A stretch of 24,125 bases of DNA, taken from contig JAGWDQ010000125.1 in the NCBI GenBank assembly GCA_018260615.1, positions 1 to 24,125 on the forward strand. The letters run 5' to 3'. This DNA comes from Candidatus Altarchaeum sp. (GTDB lineage: Archaea > Altiarchaeota > Altiarchaeia > Altiarchaeales > Altiarchaeaceae). Below the pieces are notes generated by a model. It had not been told where the DNA came from, did not search any database, and saw only the letters and a program-made list of their open reading frames with translations. This document shows, piece after piece, positions 1,272-18,400 of the stretch (the stretch's first letter is position 1; each line of letters opens with the position of its first letter). A program made the translations under genes and the position numbers.

Positions 1272-3467
1272 CTATAATTTCTTAAGTAATTTCACAACCT
1301 CAAGATGATTATGCAGATTAAACCTTGAATATGACAGGAACATTCCGACTTTAATAGTATATGCATCCTTCGGAAGAATTTTAAACAAGTCCTCATCTGT
1401 CCAGTCATCACCTATTGCCAGTACAAAATCATAATCATCATTCATAAATTGCATTGCCGCACTGCCCTTATTTACTCCTCCGTTCCTGACTTCAATTACC
1501 TTGCTTCCCTGTAAAACCTGAACATCTAAATTTGCAGTGAAATTTATTATTTCATCCCTAAGTTCCTTTGCCTTTTGCGATGCCAGTTCAACATCGCTTT
1601 TTCTGTAATGCCACACTACTGAAAAATCCTTTTCTTCAATAAAAGAATAAGGGACCCTATCCACATAATCCTGAAGTATGGAAAGTATTTTTGGTTTCCA
1701 TTTTGTATCTAATTTTCTAATCTGTCTCCATTCACCATCACCATCCTTTTCTTTTATATGGACACCATGTTCTGCTATGAATCCAACATTAAAATTTCCG
1801 AACAGTTTCTGAAGCGTTTTCCTGTCCCTGCCACTTATAATTATTACATAATTTTTATCATCATCTGAAATTTTCCTTAAAATTTCTAAAATTTCGTCGC
1901 CCGGAATTGCATCTTCAGGACGGTCAGCAAAAGGAACTAATGTTCCGTCGTAATCTAAAAATATAAGTCGTTTGTTTGCATTAACATAGTCATTTATCAT
2001 CAGTCCTTCATCATTCTTATTCAGCAATCTCATTTCAAGTATTTTCTGTTCTTCCTTCACAGATAACAACTCTGAAATAAAATCATCGCCCCATTTAATT
2101 ATGTCATACCTTCTCAATCTGTCCTGCATAATTTTATTGCGTCTGATTTGTTCTTCCACAGGCATCTCTAATGCCAACTTTAATCCGTCTGCTATTTCTT
2201 CAAGGGAGTTTGGATTTATTATAATTGCCTCTCCAAGTTCTTTTGACGCTCCTGCCATCTCACTCAAAATTAAAACGCCCTTTTCATCACTTCTTGTGGC
2301 AATATATTCCTTTGCGATTAAATTCATCCCGTCTCTCAAAGGAGTTATTAAGGCAACATCGCTAATTGCGTAATAAGATGTCAGCATCTCAAACGGAAGT
2401 GAAGTGAACTGATAATTTATCGGAGTCCATTTAATATTTCCAAATTTTCCGTTTATCCTTCCGATATATTCATCAATCTGTCTTTTCATCGCCTGATAAT
2501 GCTCAACCACAACGCGGGAAGGAACTAAAACGAGAACAAGCGCGACTTTATTATGCCACTGCGGATTCTTCTCCAAAAATAATTCATATCCCTGCAAACG
2601 ATTTATTATACCTTTCGTATAGTCCAGGCGGTCAATTGATAAAATAATTTTAAAATTTTTCAACACCTTTTCAATTTTTCCAAAATTTTTCTTTACCTTT
2701 ATGTTATCAATAGACCTGTTAAATTTGTTAAAGTCAATACCCATCGGAAATACATCCGCTTTAATGATTCTGTTGCCATAAATTTTTCCCATCTCATGAT
2801 CATAGCCGAGAACGCGAATAATTGACCTTAAGAAATGCTGAACATATCCATGCGTATGGAAGCCAATAATATCCGCTCCTAACATCCCGTCAAGTATATC
2901 TCTTTGCCATTTTCCCGGAATAAGGCAAAATATTTCATAAGAAGGAAAAGGAATATGAAGGAAAAAGCCAATAGAAATGTCTTGAATTTTGCCTCTCAAA
3001 ATTTTTGGGAGAAGCATCAAATGATAGTCCTGTATCCAGACGATATCGTCTTTCCTTAAAATTTCCATCAATGCATCGCAAAAAATTTTATTAACCTCGT
3101 TGTAAAAATTCCAGTATTCCTCCTTATACCTGACATAAGAAGAGAAGTAGTGGAATAACGGCCATAATGTGCTATTGCAAAATCCGTTATAAAAATTTTC
3201 CATACTTTTTTCAGGCAGAAAAACAGGATGGCATTTAAATTTTTTAAGTTTCTCTTTAACCACTTCCTTTTCTTCATCTCCGAATGTAGCTCCGGGCCAC
3301 CCAACCCACACATAATCATCAAATGCCTCATGTTTGCCCTCCAAATATGTCTTTAATCCGGAAACCAGACCGCCGGGACTTTGCTGAAATTTAAATTTTT
3401 CTCCGTTCTTTTTTGTTGCGAGCGGCAAACGATTTGCAACAATAACCAGTCTTCGCTCTTTTTTCAT
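1272..3467 (-). CDS. otsAB: Bifunctional trehalose-6-phosphate synthase/phosphatase (GT20 OtsA + HAD OtsB fusion, TPSP)
   Basis: GT20 motifs: IVANRLP, WPLFHY, WIQDYHL, FFLHIPFP, IDRLDYTKGI, LRDGMNLIAKEY. C-terminal HAD motifs: FLDYDGTL, ISGR, NKG, GDDWTDED. 731 aa. Confidence 0.95.
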   Translation of the reverse strand: MKKERRLVIVANRLPLATKKNGEKFKFQQSPGGLVSGLKTYLEGKHEAFDDYVWVGWPGATFGDEEKEVVKEKLKKFKCHPVFLPEKSMENFYNGFCNSTLWPLFHYFSSYVRYKEEYWNFYNEVNKIFCDALMEILRKDDIVWIQDYHLMLLPKILRGKIQDISIGFFLHIPFPSYEIFCLIPGKWQRDILDGMLGADIIGFHTHGYVQHFLRSIIRVLGYDHEMGKIYGNRIIKADVFPMGIDFNKFNRSIDNIKVKKNFGKIEKVLKNFKIILSIDRLDYTKGIINRLQGYELFLEKNPQWHNKVALVLVLVPSRVVVEHYQAMKRQIDEYIGRINGKFGNIKWTPINYQFTSLPFEMLTSYYAISDVALITPLRDGMNLIAKEYIATRSDEKGVLILSEMAGASKELGEAIIINPNSLEEIADGLKLALEMPVEEQIRRNKIMQDRLRRYDIIKWGDDFISELLSVKEEQKILEMRLLNKNDEGLMINDYVNANKRLIFLDYDGTLVPFADRPEDAIPGDEILEILRKISDDDKNYVIIISGRDRKTLQKLFGNFNVGFIAEHGVHIKEKDGDGEWRQIRKLDTKWKPKILSILQDYVDRVPYSFIEEKDFSVVWHYRKSDVELASQKAKELRDEIINFTANLDVQVLQGSKVIEVRNGGVNKGSAAMQFMNDDYDFVLAIGDDWTDEDLFKILPKDAYTIKVGMFLSYSRFNLHNHLEVVKLLKKL

Positions 3468-4522
3468 TGTTTCTCATTTTTAAAATATATATTCCTTGCA
3501 GGAAATGAAATTTCTATTCCTTCTTTATCATATCTTGCTTTTAATTTTTTAATAAATTCGTGAGTAACCGGATATTGGTCAACAAATTTCTCAACCCTTA
3601 AAATTATGCTGAAATTTATATTTGAATCATCAAATTTATTGTATCTGATGAAAGGTTCAAAATTTTTAACTGCTCCGGCAACATTTTGCTGTATTTCCTT
3701 TGCCACTTCAATAGTTATTTTTTCAACATTTTCAAGGTCAGAATTATAAGAAACCCCGCAAGGCAGAACTACTGCCATCTCCTCTTCAAGAGTATAATAA
3801 TTTGTAACTATGTTTTGTGATAATTTTAAATTAGGGATTATAATATAATTATTTTGTAATGTCTTAATGCGAACGCTTCTCCACCCGACATCTTCAACAT
3901 AACCCTTCATCCCGTTTTCCAGTTCTATATACTCGCCAATCTTTATACGACGATCTGCGATAATAAAAACGCCTGCAAAGAAATTTGATAAAGGATCCTG
4001 CAATGCCAAAGCAATTGCCAGTCCGGCAATTCCCAAGCCGGCTATAAGAGGAGTAATTTGAACTTTAAAGACCTCGCTTAAAATATATATTGCAGCAATC
4101 GCATACACAAATCCGATAATTATTTTTCTTAATATCGGTAAAAACTGCTCTTCAAATTTTGTGTCTGTTTTTATTGGTATTTCTGAGCTGTACCATTTTA
4201 TAAATCCATTAATTATTCTATCAACAAACAATACTATAATTAAAATAAATATCAGAGTAAAAATTTTCTGAATCTCGGAGTGATAATTTAAAGTAAGATT
4301 TAATTGCATTAATGCGAAATATAATCCGATAAAAATCATCAGGAAATTTACAGGCAATTTTATTATTTTCAAAATTTCATCGTCAAGTGTCGTTTTTGTT
4401 TTTTTCACCCATTTTATAACAAATTTTTCAAGAATGAAATTTGCGAGCTTTGCAACAATTGCAGAGACCGTTATTATAATTAAAGCAATTACTACATCTG
4501 AATAATTTTCAATACCCAACAT
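3464..4522 (-). CDS. mscS: Small-conductance mechanosensitive channel (MscS family), copy 1
   Basis: N-terminal TM helices, AGLGIAGLAIALALQDPLSNFFAG, IGEYI, VEDVGWRSVRI, IIIPN, C-terminal GIEISFP. Its stop overlaps the TPSP start (ATGA at 3464-3467). Confidence 0.95.
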   Translation of the reverse strand: MLGIENYSDVVIALIIITVSAIVAKLANFILEKFVIKWVKKTKTTLDDEILKIIKLPVNFLMIFIGLYFALMQLNLTLNYHSEIQKIFTLIFILIIVLFVDRIINGFIKWYSSEIPIKTDTKFEEQFLPILRKIIIGFVYAIAAIYILSEVFKVQITPLIAGLGIAGLAIALALQDPLSNFFAGVFIIADRRIKIGEYIELENGMKGYVEDVGWRSVRIKTLQNNYIIIPNLKLSQNIVTNYYTLEEEMAVVLPCGVSYNSDLENVEKITIEVAKEIQQNVAGAVKNFEPFIRYNKFDDSNINFSIILRVEKFVDQYPVTHEFIKKLKARYDKEGIEISFPARNIYFKNEKQ

Positions 4523-6686: not shown

Positions 6687-7757
6687 TTACTGCTCATCTT
6701 TTTTGATAAAAACCATTTGGGTGGGATATGCAAACTCTATCCCCTCTTTCTCAAATCTTTCCCTGATAGCAAAGTTTATATCCTGCTGGATGTCCATGTA
6801 TTTATTGTAGTCGCTGGAGTTAACATAATAAACAATTTCAAAATTCAAACTGAAATCGCCGAATTCCTTAAAGTGAACTCTGTTGAGGTCAGCCAGTTCG
6901 ATTTTATCAAAAATATCCTTTATTATTTTAAGAATCATTTTCAGTTTTTCTGTCGATGTCTCGTAGATCACACCACACTTAAAGACAATCCTCCTTTTTT
7001 CCATCTTTTTATAATTATTGATTCTGCTGGATGTCAGTTCCTGGTTTGAAATGACTATTTCCTGGCCCCATAAACTCTCCAGCCTGGTGGTTTTTATACC
7101 CGTGTGCTTAACAACTCCCATATCATTTCCCACTATGATAAAATCGCCTCTCTTAAAGGGTTTGTCAAAATATATAGAAAAAGATGCGAATATGTCGGCA
7201 AGGACGCTCTGCAGAGCAATGGCAATCGCAAGCCCGCCGATTCCAAGCCCGGCGATTAATACAGATATGTCGTAAAAATTTGATAAAATGAGGAGTGCTG
7301 CAATCAGCCACAAGGAGAATTTCAGGATTCTACTAAGGAGCTCTATAACAGAAGTGTCTTCTTCCCCTTTCTCTTCGCGCCGCCTTTGTATTGTTTTGTG
7401 CGTAATGTAATCAATTACATCTTGTAGGATCCTAACAGCGTAATAAATAATGGACAAAAGTATGAAGTAATACATAAAGGTCCCTATATGCTCTGGTATT
7501 TTGATGAACATCATAGCAAAATACAACGACAACAATACATAAAAAGGCCAGCCCACCTTATCAATACTATTAATCACAAAATCATCTAAATCTGTTTTGG
7601 TTTTGTAGGATAATTTTTTTAGTTTGCGGATTACCCAATATTTAAAAATTTTTAAGATACCAATCGCTAATACAAATATCACTAAAGCTACTATGTATTC
7701 ACCTATAGAATTACCTACAATCGGGTAAGCCAAAATATCCGTGCTGTTAAATGCCAT
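6687..7757 (-). CDS. mscS: Small-conductance mechanosensitive channel (MscS family), copy 2
   Basis: AGLGIGGLAIAIALQSVLADIFAS, DKPFKRGDFI, GIKTTRL, C-terminal GIEFAYPTQ. 356 aa. Confidence 0.95.
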   Translation of the reverse strand: MAFNSTDILAYPIVGNSIGEYIVALVIFVLAIGILKIFKYWVIRKLKKLSYKTKTDLDDFVINSIDKVGWPFYVLLSLYFAMMFIKIPEHIGTFMYYFILLSIIYYAVRILQDVIDYITHKTIQRRREEKGEEDTSVIELLSRILKFSLWLIAALLILSNFYDISVLIAGLGIGGLAIAIALQSVLADIFASFSIYFDKPFKRGDFIIVGNDMGVVKHTGIKTTRLESLWGQEIVISNQELTSSRINNYKKMEKRRIVFKCGVIYETSTEKLKMILKIIKDIFDKIELADLNRVHFKEFGDFSLNFEIVYYVNSSDYNKYMDIQQDINFAIRERFEKEGIEFAYPTQMVFIKKDEQ

Positions 7758-9020: not shown

Positions 9021-9267
9021 TTTTTAAATTTAATTATATTTTGTAAAATTTTAGGTTAGTAATTTAATTTATAAGTATTTAAATTTATCATTTATTTCAA
9101 GTTTGGAGATTTCAAAATGCATTGGAAATAACAAAAAAGGAATTTATCATAAGATATAAAGTTCGAATATTTTAAAGATTATTTTAATTTATTTACGGGT
9201 AGTTCTAATTTATTTCAATAAAATTTTAAAAAATTAATCAAGTATCATTTGCTCAACAAAATAAATA

Positions 9268-9687
9268 ATGGCATTAGAATTACCTTTTGCAATAAATTTA
9301 AACTTTCCTCTTTACGCAATTGCTATAATATCAGCATTTTTAATGACAACATTTAATATGTTTGGTAAATCTATACTAATGCCTAAACAGAAAAGCGATG
9401 AAACAATGATTAGGTTTTTGATAATGTCTATGCAAATAATATTTATTTCTATTATTCTCATAGCATTGTTTTATATGTTCGGACTTGTTTTCTCTGCTAT
9501 TTCTATGGAGATTGTTGCTTTTATAGGATACATAATTTTGTTTATTTCAATGATGGGTATTTTCTTTTTTTCGCTCTCACTACTTATTCTATTACATTCT
9601 ATGCTTCCGGTTAACATATTCAACGAAAATTTTAAATCCAAAGAAAATGGAAAAAACGAAAAACGAAGGGAGAATAAAAGCAGTTAG
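9268..9687 (+). CDS. Hypothetical membrane protein (3-4 TM)
   Basis: 139-aa ORF dominated by long hydrophobic stretches. No family recognised. Confidence 0.6.
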   Translation: MALELPFAINLNFPLYAIAIISAFLMTTFNMFGKSILMPKQKSDETMIRFLIMSMQIIFISIILIALFYMFGLVFSAISMEIVAFIGYIILFISMMGIFFFSLSLLILLHSMLPVNIFNENFKSKENGKNEKRRENKSS

Positions 9688-10483
9688 TTTGGTGGTTTTT
9701 GTAGCTCTTATATTTTTTGTGTCTGCAATGAATGTGTGTGCTCAAAACATCGGAGAAGATTCACAAAAACTTTCATTCTCTATGGCAGTTTTAGGAACAC
9801 TTATAGGAATAATTTTTTTTATCATTATATTTTATTTTTCCTATAAAAGCACAGCTAAAGGATTTGTGATAGGCAAATTATCATCATGTGGCGGATTAAG
9901 TAACCTGATAGAAAAATATAGTGCGGAACCTAAATGTGGAGAAGCAGGAGAGTTAAATCCGGCAATATTTGACGAAGAATTAACCAATATGATGTATGAA
10001 AAAGGACAGGAATATAAAATTTTGATAGATAAATATCTTTGTATAGGAAAAGAAGAAAATGAAAAATTTATGCCTTCACAATGGTTGATATACATTTTGC
10101 AAATGGGGGAATTACGACGAAAGAAAGATTCCAACACAAAATTTGACAAAGAGTCAGGAATTGTAATGCATGGTAGCAAGGGGAACCCTGTCACACATTA
10201 CATAATAACTACTGGTTTTGTGTTATATCACAAACACGAAGGTAAAGAAAGGACGGGATGGTATATAGTTCCATTTTCTTCTGAAATAAAAAAATTTGAG
10301 AAAAAATTTTCAGATGATTTTGAAAATAGAGGTGTTATTTATAAACCTGTACTCAAAAAAGAGTTGGAAGAAGCAAAAGAGAATTCAAAAGAAGAAATAT
10401 ACTTTTTAACATATGTTGGGGGAAAGTATAGATATGCAAAAAATGAGGAAATAGAAGATTTATTAAGACATCTGAATAACTAA
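9647..10483 (+). CDS. Hypothetical membrane-anchored protein
   Basis: Signal-like N-terminus (…VSAMNVCA-Q), a second TM segment (MAVLGTLIGIIFFIIIFYFSY) and a ~200-aa soluble domain. 41-bp overlap with the upstream ORF. Confidence 0.7.
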   Translation: MEKTKNEGRIKAVSLVVFVALIFFVSAMNVCAQNIGEDSQKLSFSMAVLGTLIGIIFFIIIFYFSYKSTAKGFVIGKLSSCGGLSNLIEKYSAEPKCGEAGELNPAIFDEELTNMMYEKGQEYKILIDKYLCIGKEENEKFMPSQWLIYILQMGELRRKKDSNTKFDKESGIVMHGSKGNPVTHYIITTGFVLYHKHEGKERTGWYIVPFSSEIKKFEKKFSDDFENRGVIYKPVLKKELEEAKENSKEEIYFLTYVGGKYRYAKNEEIEDLLRHLNN

Positions 10484-10643
10484 AGATTTTGAAATATGCA
10501 TGTATTTCATGGGGGAGGTAAATTTTACTCTTGTTCACCTTTTTACTTTTCTTTATAGATTATTTGTTTCTTATTTTTCATTTTGAGAACATAATTTATA
10601 AAATAAAAAATTTTATTAGTTACAAACAAATTTAAATTTTAAA

Positions 10644-11972
10644 ATGGAAAATAAAAAGATAAACATAGGGATAGTAGCAGCAGAATTTAATTACGATGTT
10701 ACTTATGCAATGGTTGAACTTGCAAAGGAGCATGCAAAATTTTTAAATGCAGAAGTTGCTGAGGTAATGAAAGTGCCGGGAACTTATGACATTCCTTTCG
10801 GGGTTAAAATTTTGCTGTCAAAGAAGAACATTGATTGTATTGTAACATTAGGGGCGGTTATTGAAGGGCAGACGGACCATGACGATGTTATAGCACAGCA
10901 GGCATCAAGGAAGATCATGGATTTAGGACTTGAATTTAACAAGCCGGTTGCACTGGGAATTTCAGGCCCGGGAATGAGTCGTCTTGAAGCACATGAAAGA
11001 GTGGATTATGCAAAGAGAGCGGTTGAGGCGGCAGTTAAGATGTGCAGAATTAAATTTGCGAGCGAAGAGAAAGAAAGCGGAGAGTATGCAAAAATAGAAG
11101 AAAAAGTTAAAGAACCTAAGGAAGAAACACATAAAGAAAAAGCAGAAGCACCAAAAGAAGAATTGCCTAATGAAGAAGCACATAAAGAAGATGAAAGGTG
11201 GATGACATCAGACGAATTTATGAAGAACATTACAGAATGGAAAGGGAAAAGAGGCAGGCCAAAAAAAGCAAAAGGTGAGACAAAAGCAAAAGATAGAGCG
11301 AAACGCATGGTAATCGGGAATAAAGAAGGGAAAAAAATCATTGAAGAACCCGGGGAAGAAGTACATAAAGAAGAAATACCTAAAGAAGAAGCAGAAGGAT
11401 GGATGAGTGCGGATGAGTTTATGGACAAACTTAGGAAGGGACGACACACAGAAGAGGAAAGAAAAGAGAAAACAACAAAGAAAGCGGAGAGGCCAAAGAA
11501 AGCAAAATCCGGGAAAAAGTCAAATATCGGAGGAAAACCAAAAAAAGCAGAGGGACTCGCAGAAGGTAAAAAGATTGCAGAGATTGCTGAAAAAAAAATT
11601 GAAGAGCCAAAAGAAGAATTAGTGAGTGCGGGGGAATCCGCGAACAAAATTGAGACGGGGATTGCAGAAGAAAAAAAGAAAAGCGGAAAGAAAAGAGGCA
11701 GGCCAAAAAAAGCAAAATCTGAGTTAAAAATAAAAGGCAAAGAAAATACGGGGGAGCCCGGAGGACCGGCAAAACTCAAAAAGATCAGGGATGAAGAAAA
11801 GGGAAAAATTATTGAAGAAATCAAAAAGAACGGAAGGATCACAACCGGAGAAGTAATGAAAATGTTTAATGTTGCAAAGAGCACGGCATGGAATGCGATG
11901 AATGAGCTTTTGAAAGAGGGATGGATTGTAAGAAAGGGAAAGAAAAATACATCCCATTATGTCCTCGCGTGA
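10644..11972 (+). CDS. ribH: 6,7-dimethyl-8-ribityllumazine synthase fused to a Lys/Glu-rich linker with AT-hook motifs and a C-terminal winged-helix domain
   Basis: aa 1-137 are archaeal RibH (AEFNYDVT, VPGTYDIP, TLGAVIEGQTDHD, LGISGPGM, AKRAVEAAVKM). KRGRPKKAK occurs at aa 202-210 and 350-358. aa 383-442 match a DeoR-like wHTH pattern (KIIEEIKKNGRITTGEVMKMFNVAKSTAWNAMNELLKEGWIVRKG...Y). Confidence 0.9.
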   Translation: MENKKINIGIVAAEFNYDVTYAMVELAKEHAKFLNAEVAEVMKVPGTYDIPFGVKILLSKKNIDCIVTLGAVIEGQTDHDDVIAQQASRKIMDLGLEFNKPVALGISGPGMSRLEAHERVDYAKRAVEAAVKMCRIKFASEEKESGEYAKIEEKVKEPKEETHKEKAEAPKEELPNEEAHKEDERWMTSDEFMKNITEWKGKRGRPKKAKGETKAKDRAKRMVIGNKEGKKIIEEPGEEVHKEEIPKEEAEGWMSADEFMDKLRKGRHTEEERKEKTTKKAERPKKAKSGKKSNIGGKPKKAEGLAEGKKIAEIAEKKIEEPKEELVSAGESANKIETGIAEEKKKSGKKRGRPKKAKSELKIKGKENTGEPGGPAKLKKIRDEEKGKIIEEIKKNGRITTGEVMKMFNVAKSTAWNAMNELLKEGWIVRKGKKNTSHYVLA

Positions 11973-12002
11973 TACAAAAACCAGGTGAACGGCAAAATGA
12001 AT

Positions 12003-12126
12003 AAAGATCACCTCGCTTACGCTCGGAGATTTTCAAAACTTACGCTCACTTCGTTCGTGTATTTTAAAAACTTCGTTTTTAAAATTGCGTTTTGAAAATA
12101 ACCTCACTTCGTTCGGAGATTTAAAA
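12003..12126 (+). repeat. Dispersed repeat cluster (same family as the MITE cargo)
   Basis: ATCACCTCGCTTACGCTCGGAGATTTT, TTACGCTCACTTCGTTCGTGTATTTT, hairpin ATTTTAAAAAC-TTC-GTTTTTAAAAT and AACCTCACTTCGTTCGGAGATTT. Homologous to 7828-7880 and 5640-5713. Confidence 0.85.
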
Positions 12127-12145
12127 TTTTTATGAGAAATTTAAA

Positions 12146-12469
12146 ATGGGATGTGAAGAGGAAAAAAAGGAGCCAGAGTGCATATTTTGTTTTTCCATAA
12201 AGGAATCAATACTTAAAGAGATTGACAAAATCGCAGAAGAGGATATGAGTAACAGGGAAGTAATAGTTAAAAAGATGGTCGGACTTGGATTGAGAGAGTT
12301 CAGAAAAGCAAAAGCGGCAAAACTATACAAAGAAGAACGGCTGTCCCTTTCCGAAGCGGCGAAAATGGCGGGACTTACGATGAAGCGTATGAAAGAATAT
12401 CTGGCAGAGAAGGATTACCGGCTGGATTATAGTATTCTGGATATTGAAAGAGAGCTGGGAATTTTATAA
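12146..12469 (+). CDS. UPF0175-family protein (RHH-like N-terminus + HTH; antitoxin-like)
   Basis: C-terminal pattern LYKEERLSLSEAAKMAGLT…MKEYL. N-terminal SIKESILKEIDKIAEEDM…EVIVKK resembles a ribbon-helix-helix. Confidence 0.7.
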   Translation: MGCEEEKKEPECIFCFSIKESILKEIDKIAEEDMSNREVIVKKMVGLGLREFRKAKAAKLYKEERLSLSEAAKMAGLTMKRMKEYLAEKDYRLDYSILDIERELGIL

Positions 12470-13276: not shown

Positions 13277-14350
13277 ATGGCAAATCATTTTGTTAGATTA
13301 TTGGAAGAAAGCGGGCAGCACAAAATTTCAAAGGAACTTCCCGATAAAATAAATATACTTGCTCATAAAATCAGAGCATATAAAGAAGGCAAAAATCTTA
13401 CCTTATTTGAAACGTGTCTTATTGACAGCAAAAAAGAAATATTTTTAAATAGCATAAGGAGCAAAAATCCGGACAGTATGAATAAATACAAGAGAGTTTG
13501 TTTGTCACCCATTCGTTATGCAGGAGGTAAAAGTTTGGCTGTTGGCTATGTTTCGGAGTTACTTCCGGATAACATAAAAAGATTAATATCACCTTTTTTT
13601 GGTGGCGGCTCTGTTGAAATATCCTGTAATATAAATCTCGGGGTAGAAATTATTGGCTTTGATATTTTTGAAATACTTGCTAAATACTGGAATGTGCAAA
13701 TAAAATATCCTGATATTTTATATGACAAACTTAAAGAACTAAAACCAACAAAAGAAAATTATAATAAAGTAAAAGAAATCTTAAAAAAACACTGGTTGAA
13801 AGAAATTACATTAAACGATATTGATTTAGCCACTTATTATTACTTTAATCATAATTTATCTTATGGACCAAGTTTTTTGGGATGGACTTCTGACATTTAT
13901 CTTAATGAAAAAAAATATGAATCAATGTTAAATAAAGTAAAAAATTTTAAAGTAAAGAATATAAATGTATCTTGCGCTGATTTTGAAAAAGTATTTAATG
14001 ATTATCCAAATGATTTCTTTTATTGCGACCCCCCTTATTATTTAGGCAGTGACAGCAAAATGTTTAAAGGTATATACCCGCAAAGGAATTTTCCGATACA
14101 TCATAATAATTTTAACCACGAAAAGTTAAGGGAATTGTTACATAATCATAAAGGTGGTTTTATTTTATCATATAATGATTGTCCTACAATAAGAGAGGGC
14201 TATAAAGATTATAAAATGATATTTCCTTCGTGGCAATACACTATGGGACAGGGTGAAACAAGAATTGGCTTAAACAGAAAGAATAATAATTGCGATAATA
14301 ATATAAAAAAATCACATGAAATAATAATTTATTCCATACCAAATGAGTAA
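13277..14350 (+). CDS. N6-adenine DNA methyltransferase (D12/Dam-like class) with a PspAA-like N-terminal extension
   Basis: SPIRYAGGKS, SPFFGGGSVE (motif I) and YCDPPY (motif IV). aa 1-35 are 18/35 identical, ungapped, to the 16049 ORF. Confidence 0.92.
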   Translation: MANHFVRLLEESGQHKISKELPDKINILAHKIRAYKEGKNLTLFETCLIDSKKEIFLNSIRSKNPDSMNKYKRVCLSPIRYAGGKSLAVGYVSELLPDNIKRLISPFFGGGSVEISCNINLGVEIIGFDIFEILAKYWNVQIKYPDILYDKLKELKPTKENYNKVKEILKKHWLKEITLNDIDLATYYYFNHNLSYGPSFLGWTSDIYLNEKKYESMLNKVKNFKVKNINVSCADFEKVFNDYPNDFFYCDPPYYLGSDSKMFKGIYPQRNFPIHHNNFNHEKLRELLHNHKGGFILSYNDCPTIREGYKDYKMIFPSWQYTMGQGETRIGLNRKNNNCDNNIKKSHEIIIYSIPNE

Positions 14351-15107
14351 AAGGAGAGCGATGAGTTCTGCCGAAGCAAGCAGAGTAAAAAAAGCAGGGC
14401 ATTCTGCTGAAAAAGAATTTGCAGAGTTAATAGGGGGCAAAGTTTATTCGTCTCATACTGGAATGAAAAAAGATGTATTGGACAAAAATAATGACTTTCA
14501 TTCTGTAAAAAGCGGAAATAAAAAATGGCAAATCTTTTTGTATGGTAAGAAAAGATTTGAAGACGATGATATTTTTCAAGTTCTTAATGGGTTTGCGGAA
14601 TTATTTTTGGGATGTATATACAGTTTTCCCGAAAGTAGAGAAGAATATTTGAATGATAAAAGATATTTTAAAGAAAAATTAACAAAGTATATGATTGCTT
14701 TGAAAGAGAAATTAGAAGTAAAAATTAAGTTAAAAGCATTTTTATCTATGTCATTATTTAATGGCGGAGAAGTTAATTATCTGACTATTAAAGAACATGA
14801 CGGAACATTTCACATTTTCAAAAATAATGAAGTAATAAATATTTTGTCTGATAATATTGTTGCTGAAAATTCAAAAGCAAGGCAAGATAACCAATTTAAC
14901 AACCAAAAAGTTGTTTTCAAATACGATGATGTTGCCATTGGAGAGATAGAAATGCGCAACGATAGCAATGTGCATTATAGACAAGTAAAATTCTGGTTGG
15001 GCAGAGATAAAACATTTTCCTTACTAACAAAGAACATAAATAAAAAAGAAGAAATGTGTAGTAGAATATTTGTATATGGTCAAGCTATAAAGACCTTTAC
15101 TTGTTAA
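14343..15107 (+). CDS. Putative type II restriction endonuclease (PD-(D/E)xK-like)
   Basis: Overlaps the methylase stop by 8 bp. GHSAEKEF...KKDV...HSVKSG fits an E...D...(S/E)xK nuclease core. Specificity unknown. Confidence 0.65.
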   Translation: MSKRRAMSSAEASRVKKAGHSAEKEFAELIGGKVYSSHTGMKKDVLDKNNDFHSVKSGNKKWQIFLYGKKRFEDDDIFQVLNGFAELFLGCIYSFPESREEYLNDKRYFKEKLTKYMIALKEKLEVKIKLKAFLSMSLFNGGEVNYLTIKEHDGTFHIFKNNEVINILSDNIVAENSKARQDNQFNNQKVVFKYDDVAIGEIEMRNDSNVHYRQVKFWLGRDKTFSLLTKNINKKEEMCSRIFVYGQAIKTFTC

Positions 15108-16333: not shown

Positions 16334-16458
16334 GGAAAATCACTCATGATTGTGTGGAATTTGAAGTTTGAAGGCGGAGAAAGAGCAAGTCCAAAAATTT
16401 AGATTATAAAGAATTAAGTCATTAAATTTGAGTGAGTAAATTTAAAAGTAAATTTAAA

Positions 16459-17628
16459 ATGTTCAAAGATTCTGATTTTGAAGTAGATGTCGAACATGAG
16501 GTAATTAAATGGCTCGTTGATAGTTCGGGATACACTACTGAAAAGCTTAGTGAACAGTTTGGAACAGGTGGTGAAAATACTATCAAAGAATGGATTGAAG
16601 GCAAAAAGAAACCAACAGAAAAGCAATTGGAATATTTGGCTAAATACTTAAAAAGACCCTTGGCAGCGTTCTTTTTGCCAAAACCTCCCGAAGAGAAGCC
16701 GCGACCAAAGGACTATAGAATGCTTCCTGGAAAAGAAGGAAAATTTGATCCGAAAACACTTCTTGCGATTAGAACAGCAAGAAGACTTCAGAAAATTAGC
16801 AAAGAACTTGCTGAAAATTTGGACAATAAAATAAAACAAAATATTTTTTCTGCGGATTTAACAGATAATCCCAAGAAAATTGCAGAAAGATATAGAAATA
16901 TCTTTCAGATTACAGACGAGACACAAAAAAACCGGAAAACCCCTCGTGATGCTTTTAAAATGCTAAGAGAATCCATTGAAAAAAGAAATATCCTTGTTTT
17001 TCAGATTCCGATGCCTATGGAAGATGCAAGGGGGTTTGCATTATCAGACGATAATCCTTGTGTAATTGTTGTAAATTCAAAAGAAGACCGGATTGAAGCA
17101 AGATTATTTACTCTTATGCACGAGTTTGCTCATATTCTTTTAAATAAATCTGGAATTGATATGCCCGAGAATTCTTTATTTATCCTGAACAACCAAAATG
17201 AAGTTGAAAAATGGTGCAACGAATTCGCATCCGAGTTCTTACTACCGGAAAAAACAGCTATGGAGATATTCACTAAAAATAAAATGACTCTTACCACTAC
17301 AGAAACATTGAATACATTTAAAAAAAAATACAAAGTAAGCAAACTTATGCTTCTTTACAATATGCGAAAACTAAATTATATAACTGACATACAGGTTGAC
17401 GAGGTCGTTGGAAGATACAAACCAGTTCAAAAAGAATCTAAAAAAACAAAGAGGAAACCAGGTGGACCTGCACCGGATGTCAGATGTCTTAGTGAAAAAG
17501 GAAAGAAATTTATCTCTCTCGTATCTAAAAATCTTGACAAAAATTTTATAACCGAAAGAGATGCATTGGATTATCTCTCAATAAAATCTACACAATATAA
17601 TAAAATATTATCTAAAATAAGGGAATAG
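16459..17628 (+). CDS. XRE-type HTH + ImmA/IrrE (M78) metallopeptidase
   Basis: N-terminal HTH (EKLSEQF...IKEWIEGKKKPTEKQLEYLAKYL), RPLAAFFLPKPP, DYRML, RGFAL, zinc motif FTLMHEFAH, EKWCNEFASEFLLP. The ORF-track start is a GTG at 16432; I prefer the in-frame ATG at 16459. Confidence 0.9.
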   Translation: MFKDSDFEVDVEHEVIKWLVDSSGYTTEKLSEQFGTGGENTIKEWIEGKKKPTEKQLEYLAKYLKRPLAAFFLPKPPEEKPRPKDYRMLPGKEGKFDPKTLLAIRTARRLQKISKELAENLDNKIKQNIFSADLTDNPKKIAERYRNIFQITDETQKNRKTPRDAFKMLRESIEKRNILVFQIPMPMEDARGFALSDDNPCVIVVNSKEDRIEARLFTLMHEFAHILLNKSGIDMPENSLFILNNQNEVEKWCNEFASEFLLPEKTAMEIFTKNKMTLTTTETLNTFKKKYKVSKLMLLYNMRKLNYITDIQVDEVVGRYKPVQKESKKTKRKPGGPAPDVRCLSEKGKKFISLVSKNLDKNFITERDALDYLSIKSTQYNKILSKIRE

Positions 17629-17629
17629 C

Positions 17630-18400
17630 ATGACAAGAAATATTTATGTTATTGATACCTCTTCTTTACTCGAAATAAAACCGGAAAAATATCCTTTTGA
17701 TATATTTGTCGGTATGTGGAAAGATTTGGAAAAGTTAGTAAAAAATGGAAGGATCATATCCTCTAAACTTGTTTTTGAAGAATTAGAAAAAATGGATGAT
17801 GGTATGTACAAATGGGCAAAAGAAAATGAAAACATATTTACAGAAAATACTCCTGAACGAAACAAGTTAGTTTCCGAAATTCTTAAATATGATAATTTTT
17901 CTGCCCTAATTGATCCTGATGCAAAAGGAGAACAGGCAGATCCTTTTATTATTGCAATGGCATTAGAAAAAGAGCAGCGGCATTTATCTTTTAACGAAGA
18001 AATAAAAAAGATTGTGGTTACAGAGGAAAGGTCGGACAAGTATTTGTTTACCTGGGATGATAATGACAATGACGGAATCCGAAAATTTTTGAAGAATAAA
18101 TTAAAACAAGAGTGGGTAAAAGATGCAGAAATCAGAAAAACAAACGGCAATATAATCATTACAAAAAATGAAAACAAAATTACACTCAAACTTCACAATG
18201 AAGAAAACAAAGCAAACTTAGAAATCTACGATGGAAAGAATTATAATTACGACGAATACATTTCTAAAAAAAATGTTAATGGCAAGATAGGCATCTATAA
18301 GAAAAGCAATAAGATAAAAATATCTTTTGTATGTCAACATTTTAAAATTGAATGCATAAATATTTTTGGTTTATTCAGAAAAGAAAAATGGAGTTGGTAA
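17630..18400 (+). CDS. PIN-domain protein (DUF4411-like) with an 86-aa insertion
   Basis: YVIDTSSLL, VFEEL, ADPFIIAMA, VVTEE and C-terminal KIKI.xVC...ECI...W. Begins 1 nt after the IrrE gene. XRE-IrrE plus DUF4411 is a recurring gene pair. Confidence 0.85.
   Translation: MTRNIYVIDTSSLLEIKPEKYPFDIFVGMWKDLEKLVKNGRIISSKLVFEELEKMDDGMYKWAKENENIFTENTPERNKLVSEILKYDNFSALIDPDAKGEQADPFIIAMALEKEQRHLSFNEEIKKIVVTEERSDKYLFTWDDNDNDGIRKFLKNKLKQEWVKDAEIRKTNGNIIITKNENKITLKLHNEENKANLEIYDGKNYNYDEYISKKNVNGKIGIYKKSNKIKISFVCQHFKIECINIFGLFRKEKWSW

Follow-up and report, generated by a model that had tools for sequence, protein, structure and literature searches.

Related systems

AT-hook proteins are exemplified by HMGA and by Myxococcus CarD, with hook-like motifs found as well in H-NS/Lsr2. 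Enzymes, too, can handle DNA, with PepA of E. coli wrapping it about its own folded surface. PepA, that is, is a hexameric aminopeptidase which wraps ~230 bp (PMC6245113). Riboflavin-pathway enzymes, for their part, can act as regulators, as seen with RbkR, in which an N-terminal MarR-like winged helix-turn-helix (wHTH) is carried on a CTP-dependent riboflavin kinase and which dimerises on palindromic operators (PMC5397151). Lumazine synthases (RibH) are pentamers, some of them decamers or 60-mers, with a lumen of 80 Å (PMC13151069, PMC10366380), and in the Aquifex shell both native termini face outward (10.1101/2025.10.22.683813). The engineered nucleocapsids NC-1 to NC-4 combine that Aquifex enzyme (AaLS) with a nucleic-acid-binding element.

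The protein considered here, a RibH which continues into a charged linker and a terminal wHTH, resembles each of these in part. PepA is the best functional analogy, i.e., for the role proposed below, as both would be oligomeric housekeeping enzymes serving as DNA-architectural scaffolds. The two are not homologous, however, and PepA has no appended arms of hook plus wHTH. RbkR shares the pairing of a riboflavin-pathway enzyme with a winged helix, but the RibH fusion involves another enzyme, a C-terminal wHTH of another family, a long disordered linker, and an operator that was not found. NC-1 to NC-4 likewise join a lumazine synthase to a nucleic-acid-binding element, though they are artificial, circularly permuted, and hold their cargo inside, whereas the natural fusion retains the native topology. 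AT-hook proteins resemble the linker in having a basic-flanked RGRP within a disordered region that includes acidic blocks; the RibH hook nevertheless falls below the Pfam cut-off, is often V/K-substituted in orthologues, and is borne by what should be an enzyme oligomer. We class the protein as an enzyme/DNA-binding fusion, one which by analogy would work most like PepA. The papers searched included none describing a lumazine synthase that naturally bears a DNA-binding domain, none on Altiarchaea together with lumazine synthase, and none on a RibH-wHTH fusion, and in UniRef an orthologue (A0A098E737/A0A098E6A6) is labelled merely ‘modular protein’.

The fusion gene and its reading frame

The window, i.e., the whole 24,125-nucleotide stretch of DNA that was analysed, holds at 10644-11972 (+) a single frame of 442 aa with no internal stop. 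An earlier, sequence-only reading had claimed that RibH here runs on without a stop into its tail, and that is confirmed. The features of the gene and its flanks are these:

10593..10643, + strand: AT-rich 5' region with a TATA-like box
10644..11057, + strand: archaeal lumazine synthase (RibH) domain, aa 1-138 (from Pfam/NCBIfam, invariant residues and dN/dS)
11058..11780, + strand: Lys/Glu-rich linker, aa 139-379, predicted disordered, net +11 (pLDDT <50 over most of it)
11199..11225, + strand: short helical motif WMxxEEFM, copy 1, retained by most, not all, orthologues
11247..11273, + strand: AT-hook-like motif 1 (KRGRPKKAK), in a duplicated module
11487..11552, + strand: degenerate hook copies (ERPKKAK, GKPKKAE), repeat family D2
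11691..11717, + strand: AT-hook-like motif 2 (KRGRPKKAK), orthologous to the single basic patch of relatives
11781..11969, + strand: C-terminal wHTH, aa 380-442, pI ~9.9 (from Pfam and AlphaFold2)
12002..12147, no strand assigned: one copy of a genome-wide AT-rich hairpin repeat (from depth and blastn)

No stop or frameshift is present near 11055, the point at which a break had been thought worth checking for. In one study, two groundwater samples gave read contigs that span the enzyme-linker junction, X1 covering 10891-12067 and X2 10300-11603, and no indels are listed for them. One of these contigs may come from the source sample itself. The substitutions seen in the other agree with P0002, an intact 442-aa protein on a separate record which is 98% identical to the RibH fusion.

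Two neighbouring genes could in principle have been merged, as an artefact of assembly or of gene calling, and one NCBI record, P0033, does give the wHTH alone, as a 67-aa protein. The DNA under that record is, however, a single 237-aa in-frame fusion, while at the present locus read contigs cross the junction, and many independent assemblies have the frame uninterrupted. The artefact explanation is refuted at the DNA level, and we assign it a negligible probability. P0033 was considered also as a stand-alone gene which might have donated the wHTH; it is rejected as such, being a mis-called part of another in-frame fusion.

The lumazine synthase domain

Pfam DMRL_synthase matches aa 6-136 (E 8.7e-36), the equivalog model TIGR00114 scores 145.9 bits versus a cut-off of 84.6, and the best Foldseek matches of the enzyme domain are lumazine synthases. 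The fusion, by sequence and by fold, belongs to the RibH family. Residues F15, H79, R119, R125 and E128 are invariant among orthologues and align with Aquifex F22, H88, R127, K135 and E138, which we take to be active-site residues, with Arg replacing Lys at R125. Selection on this domain is strong, at a dN/dS of ~0.07. The genome encodes ribB, ribC and ribK as well, and its ribH is single copy, i.e., the fusion is the sole ribH match and the only other PF00885 match is ribC. We infer that the cell relies on the N-terminal domain as its lumazine synthase, and that this domain is enzymatically active. Fold, catalytic residues, a predicted oligomer interface and single-copy status are common to the fusion and to archaeal RibH generally (TIGR00114, PF00885). 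The difference is that relatives stop ~0-57 aa past the core, whereas the fusion adds a C-terminal extension of 100-340 aa with hook and wHTH.

That this enzyme core assembles had been proposed along with the fusion, and oligomer prediction supports self-association. ESMFold2 runs with four copies of aa 1-160 scored 0.84, versus 0.01 for the best control, with at least 75% of contacts agreeing, pLDDT of at least 82, and residues beyond 140 not among the interface residues listed. Among solved homo-oligomers 20 of 30 reach the mark applied, as does 1 of 23 monomers. This score probably is owed to likeness with solved lumazine synthases. The core should still oligomerise, probably into the kind of assembly that homology suggests.

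The linker and its hooks

AlphaFold2 predicts two folded ends (pLDDT ~70-89) with a low-confidence linker between them. Within that linker acidic and basic blocks alternate, and across relatives its length varies from ~40 to 241 aa. The length seen here has come about by duplication of a module (repeat families D2 and D5) that comprises the short helix, a hook and the first part of the wHTH, with the second copy of WMxxEEFM found at aa 253-260. Lys/Glu-rich tails as such are common in this proteome, occurring in 21 ORFs, and the RibH linker is only mildly basic.

Both KRGRPKKAK motifs lie where they had been reported (11247-11273 and 11691-11717). The pattern [KR]RGRP[KR] is expected 0.02 times genome-wide and is found three times, twice in the RibH fusion and once in Rpo11, so that the fusion carries an RGRP core with basic flanks, in two copies, far more than chance would supply. 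The Pfam AT_hook model nonetheless is not reached, at 10.1 bits versus a cut-off of 17.4. As both perfect hooks are copies of one duplicated module they do not represent two independent events. Most relatives carry one basic patch, with cores of RGRP, VGRP, RGRL, VGKP, RMP or RGWP, i.e., with the canonical RGRP present in some orthologues only. The presence of two hooks therefore holds for this species but not as a general feature. What the orthologues compared have in common is an enzyme, a charged linker, usually one basic GRP-type patch, and a winged helix.

The winged helix

The sequence-only reading described the C-terminal domain as a ‘DeoR-like winged helix’. The winged helix stands, with aa 387-430 matching HTH_24 at E 6e-9 and HTH_DeoR above its cut-off, whereas kinship with DeoR regulators does not, the nearest domains being the wHTHs of Fic, AlbA_2 and small membrane proteins. 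DeoR factors combine an N-terminal HTH with a C-terminal sugar-phosphate sensor; in the RibH fusion the HTH is C-terminal and the sensor domain is absent, and identity as a DeoR transcription factor was on those grounds rejected. The same wHTH family also terminates Fic and AlbA_2/HATPase_c_4 proteins, plus many small membrane-anchored proteins, and has ~14 paralogues in this genome. Going by this distribution, it is a mobile terminal module rather than a DeoR regulator. A Z-alpha identity was considered and dropped, its signature residues being absent by eye.

Median dN/dS for the wHTH is 0.30, with closer pairs at 0.20-0.23 (p<=0.003) and some pairs near 1, these pairs not being independent of one another. 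The domain, as far as such ratios indicate, is under purifying selection, though weaker than that on the enzyme, and in one species it has been duplicated. Its fold residues are fixed, while positions 411, 413 and 417 of the recognition helix vary (3-6 residue types among 8 sequences). A varying recognition helix on a fixed fold is the pattern that would be expected given low specificity. Separately, several proteins of 400-1000 aa (P0030, P0031, P0034-P0037 and P0097) carry 4-11 tandem copies of the wHTH family of the RibH tail, which may be viewed as another route to a multivalent module.

Distribution of the fusion

The fusion is present in all four Ca. Altiarchaeum genomes, at 442 aa here and at 278, 387 and 480 aa in the other three (Ca. 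Altarchaeum / Altiarchaeales A3). Further Altarchaeaceae have it too, with metagenomic fusions of 260-278 aa and, in one genome, the 237-aa fusion mis-called as the lone wHTH of P0033, making for an overall range of 237-480 aa. The search for long RibH homologues which the sequence-only reading had called for thus finds the fusion conserved. In the phylum's other families RibH is plain, with a tail of 0-57 aa and no fusion, and a wHTH query against 57 other genomes of the phylum returned no comparable match, one weak match aside. A search for long RibH proteins beyond the clade yielded only 11 proteins, of 243-774 aa; being word-based, it misses distant lumazine synthases, and fusions elsewhere are conceivable.

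Fused enzymes form one clade, with support of 100/98 in one tree and 94/87 in another. A hot-spring RibH, P0011 (L031:5001-6071), has a 220-aa Lys-rich, histone-H1-like tail but no wHTH. It is sister to the fusion clade in the larger tree (98/92) and less clearly so in the smaller, and probably represents a sister lineage with a different though likewise long Lys-rich tail. The ~85-aa folded domain of that tail had no Pfam, Atlas, homologue or fold match (best Z 3.9, model pLDDT 64). Within the fusion clade itself, a RibH on a 1.4-kb contig (L152:64-606) ends 34 aa past the core and retains, of the wHTH, no more than a remnant of its first helix, out of frame, suggesting, from this single short contig, that the wHTH can be lost. 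As a further observation, in one Altiarchaeota family (L039-L069) RibH bears an acidic tail of 24-50 aa which ends in a conserved amphipathic motif of FLEMG / FFKEFG type, possibly a docking peptide.

Histones and other nucleoid proteins

The histone family PF00808 was found in 0 of 4 Altiarchaeum genomes (65-87% complete) versus 55 of 57 other genomes of the phylum. Queries by tblastn with six relatives' histones against Altiarchaeum gave nothing, with E of at least 0.16 at best, and argC, which is the histone's neighbour in three relatives, is here without an adjoining histone. The lineage, by these searches, appears to have lost histones; the literature searched included no paper stating such a loss in Ca. 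Altiarchaeum. HU was searched for and not found, MC1 occurs in one genome only, and Alba in three of the four.

Rpo11 (L100:1749-2225 = G000:C8:8248-8724; L119-L121) has in all four Altiarchaeum genomes a charged Lys/Glu tail of 54-104 aa, as compared with 0-18 aa in ten others, and in all four this tail ends in an AT-hook-like motif of RGR(P) type. It is the sole other protein with a hook in this genome, and is a subunit of a DNA-bound machine. DUF5679, a small basic zinc-ribbon protein of 50 aa, is encoded by three tandem genes at L136 (G000:C70:17731-18271), by a pair in each of the three remaining Altiarchaeum genomes, and mostly by single genes in three related families, and is a good candidate nucleoid protein. 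Alba and the tandem DUF5679 are rival candidates for histone substitutes, and the more conventional ones. The ribosomal L40e frame (L231, G000:C70:14675-14776) is longer as well in Altiarchaeum, at 84-90 aa versus 53 and 71 aa in two relatives.

As histone loss and tail gain fall on one branch, they constitute one event rather than a statistic. Likewise, histone loss, the Rpo11 tail, and the RibK and DUF5679 changes all are on one branch and so are not countable as independent support. Characterised archaeal nucleoid proteins are smaller than 290 aa, and investment in them falls with growth temperature (PMC7613761). The RibH fusion, at 442 aa, exceeds that size, while most orthologues, at 237-278 aa, are within it, and a DNA-binding domain is present in the form of the predicted wHTH, above Pfam cut-offs. 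A codon proxy, NNC/NNT, failed to separate highly expressed genes.

Proposed role and its alternatives

What we propose, tentatively and with a little less than even confidence, is a two-function protein, that is, an active enzyme oligomer bearing at least five outward, low-specificity DNA-binding arms and having an accessory nucleoid role. The enzyme domain would form at least a pentamer, with every subunit extending outward a flexible, charged arm consisting of the basic GRP hook and the terminal winged helix. The hook would contact the minor groove or backbone, and DNA binding by the arms would be weak and only slightly sequence-specific. Five such arms, or up to 60, would then supply avidity and the bridging of DNA segments, the oligomer thereby serving as an accessory nucleoid organiser in a lineage without histones. 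Outward placement is suggested by homology: as both termini are outside in the Aquifex shell, RibH tails should radiate outward, and as the natural fusion keeps the native topology its arms should point the same way. If arms do bind DNA, then nature has made an outward-display counterpart of a standard engineered display and nucleocapsid scaffold.

The sequence-only reading had suggested just such multivalent DNA binding. Apparent histone loss lends that suggestion circumstantial support, while binding itself is a prediction. Consistent with an accessory nucleoid role are the fusion's presence in 4 of 4 Altiarchaeum genomes, selection on the wHTH, histones which were not found, and the hook tail of Rpo11; on the other side are the wHTH remnant in L152, the non-canonical hooks, the mildly basic linker and the 442-aa size. 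A broader version, that following histone loss Altarchaeaceae rebuilt chromatin using DNA-binding tails, with RibH, a metabolic enzyme cage, as an abundant bridging hub of 5-60 arms and a major organiser of the chromosome, and with RNA polymerase tethered by its AT-hook, we consider unlikely. RibH tail, Rpo11 hook, DUF5679 triplet and Alba are in any case expressible candidates for the chromosome organiser of an uncultivated archaeon.

The same parts might be read as a natural nucleocapsid, with nucleic acid packaged within the lumazine synthase shell, since such packaging is achieved by engineered cages of lumazine synthase that carry an RNA-binding peptide (PDB 7a4f-j). Those cages needed circular permutation, however, because both native termini are outside (10.1101/2025.10.22.683813), and by homology the termini here should face outward too. 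Room is a further difficulty: by our own arithmetic, at 0.133 nm3 for each residue, 60 tails 304 aa long would occupy ~2400 nm3, or ~9 times a T=1 lumen of ~270 nm3 (from an 80 Å inner diameter), and even 100 aa each would occupy ~800 nm3. Packaging of this kind, one of the roles first floated for the protein, is highly improbable. Rather less so, though still improbable, is a sequence-specific enzyme-regulator, i.e., RibH-wHTH having taken over the flavin genes once RibK had lost the HTH of RbkR, with substrate or product in the active site tuning binding to DNA. RibK is indeed only 125-131 aa and without an HTH in 4 of 4 Altiarchaeum genomes (L137, L249-L251), while most genomes of three other families have frames of 213-245 aa consistent with RbkR. 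Short RibK, apparently likewise lacking the HTH, occurs also in two other families, though, and there without a RibH fusion. The rib genes moreover are scattered, with ribK at or near the end of an upstream gene, and the conserved upstream block is in this genome parted from ribH. Among 14 upstream regions (ribH/ribB/ribC) the only shared operator candidates were pure A/T dyads, a weak test in DNA of 33% GC, and a sigma-70 scan was at chance level, with a model that is unsuited to archaea. As no operator common to these genes was found and the recognition helix varies, the flavin regulator suggested by the sequence-only reading is not borne out; in addition, a long disordered linker would presumably be a poor allosteric coupler. 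Variable linker, interchangeable arm number, variable recognition helix and lack of a shared operator fit better with avid, low-specificity binding than with operator recognition.

A more serious competitor, possible if somewhat doubtful, is that the tail is a tolerated appendage, with a promiscuous wHTH and slippage-prone Lys/Glu repeats having been added to a free C-terminus and playing a minor role. With similar doubt it could be supposed that the appendage tethers the enzyme to nucleic acid or to a partner protein, or affects solubility or capsid assembly, without shaping the chromosome. The same wHTH family does cap many unrelated proteins (~14 paralogues here, membrane-anchored proteins elsewhere), its dN/dS is ~4.5-fold that seen for the enzyme, some pairs coming close to 1, and in L152 it has decayed. 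Charged tails are found on other housekeeping proteins too, and in another family of the phylum RibH bears a short acidic tail of its own. Against mere tolerance, the wHTH has stayed in frame across linkers of ~40-241 aa and across lineages near synonymous saturation, having even been duplicated once, and the hook is seen again on just one other protein, that being a subunit of a DNA-bound machine.

Flanking DNA and neighbouring genes

The AT-rich hairpin repeats, one copy of which follows the gene, had been put forward as a ligand of the fusion. The repeat is a dispersed element, with 394 blastn hits on 89 contigs and a depth ~70 times that of the RibH-fusion gene, and in the relatives examined it was not found directly behind ribH. 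Dispersed and without positional conservation, the repeat module was rejected as cognate ligand. Elsewhere, on L138 (G000:C53), intact ribB is preceded by a partial copy of its own 5' end, and a hairpin repeat interrupts that copy. An Rfam search of the window gave no match.

In relatives rpl15e and ribH are adjacent, whereas here two inserted genes (9268-10483 of the window) lie between these divergent genes. An upstream block which is conserved in relatives consequently stays at 9048-9104, cut off from ribH by that insertion. Further along, at 13277-15107, a gene for a D12-class adenine methyltransferase overlaps a 254-aa ORF, together probably a restriction-modification pair, between metallophosphoesterase and pspA genes that are adjacent in relatives. 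At 16432-18400 an HTH + IrrE/M78 peptidase gene is followed by a DUF4411 gene with a long insertion in its product, in what looks like a mobile toxin-antitoxin-type pair. At 1272-4522 and 6687-7757, a fused trehalose-6-phosphate synthase/phosphatase is found beside two MscS channel genes, forming an osmotic-stress cluster.
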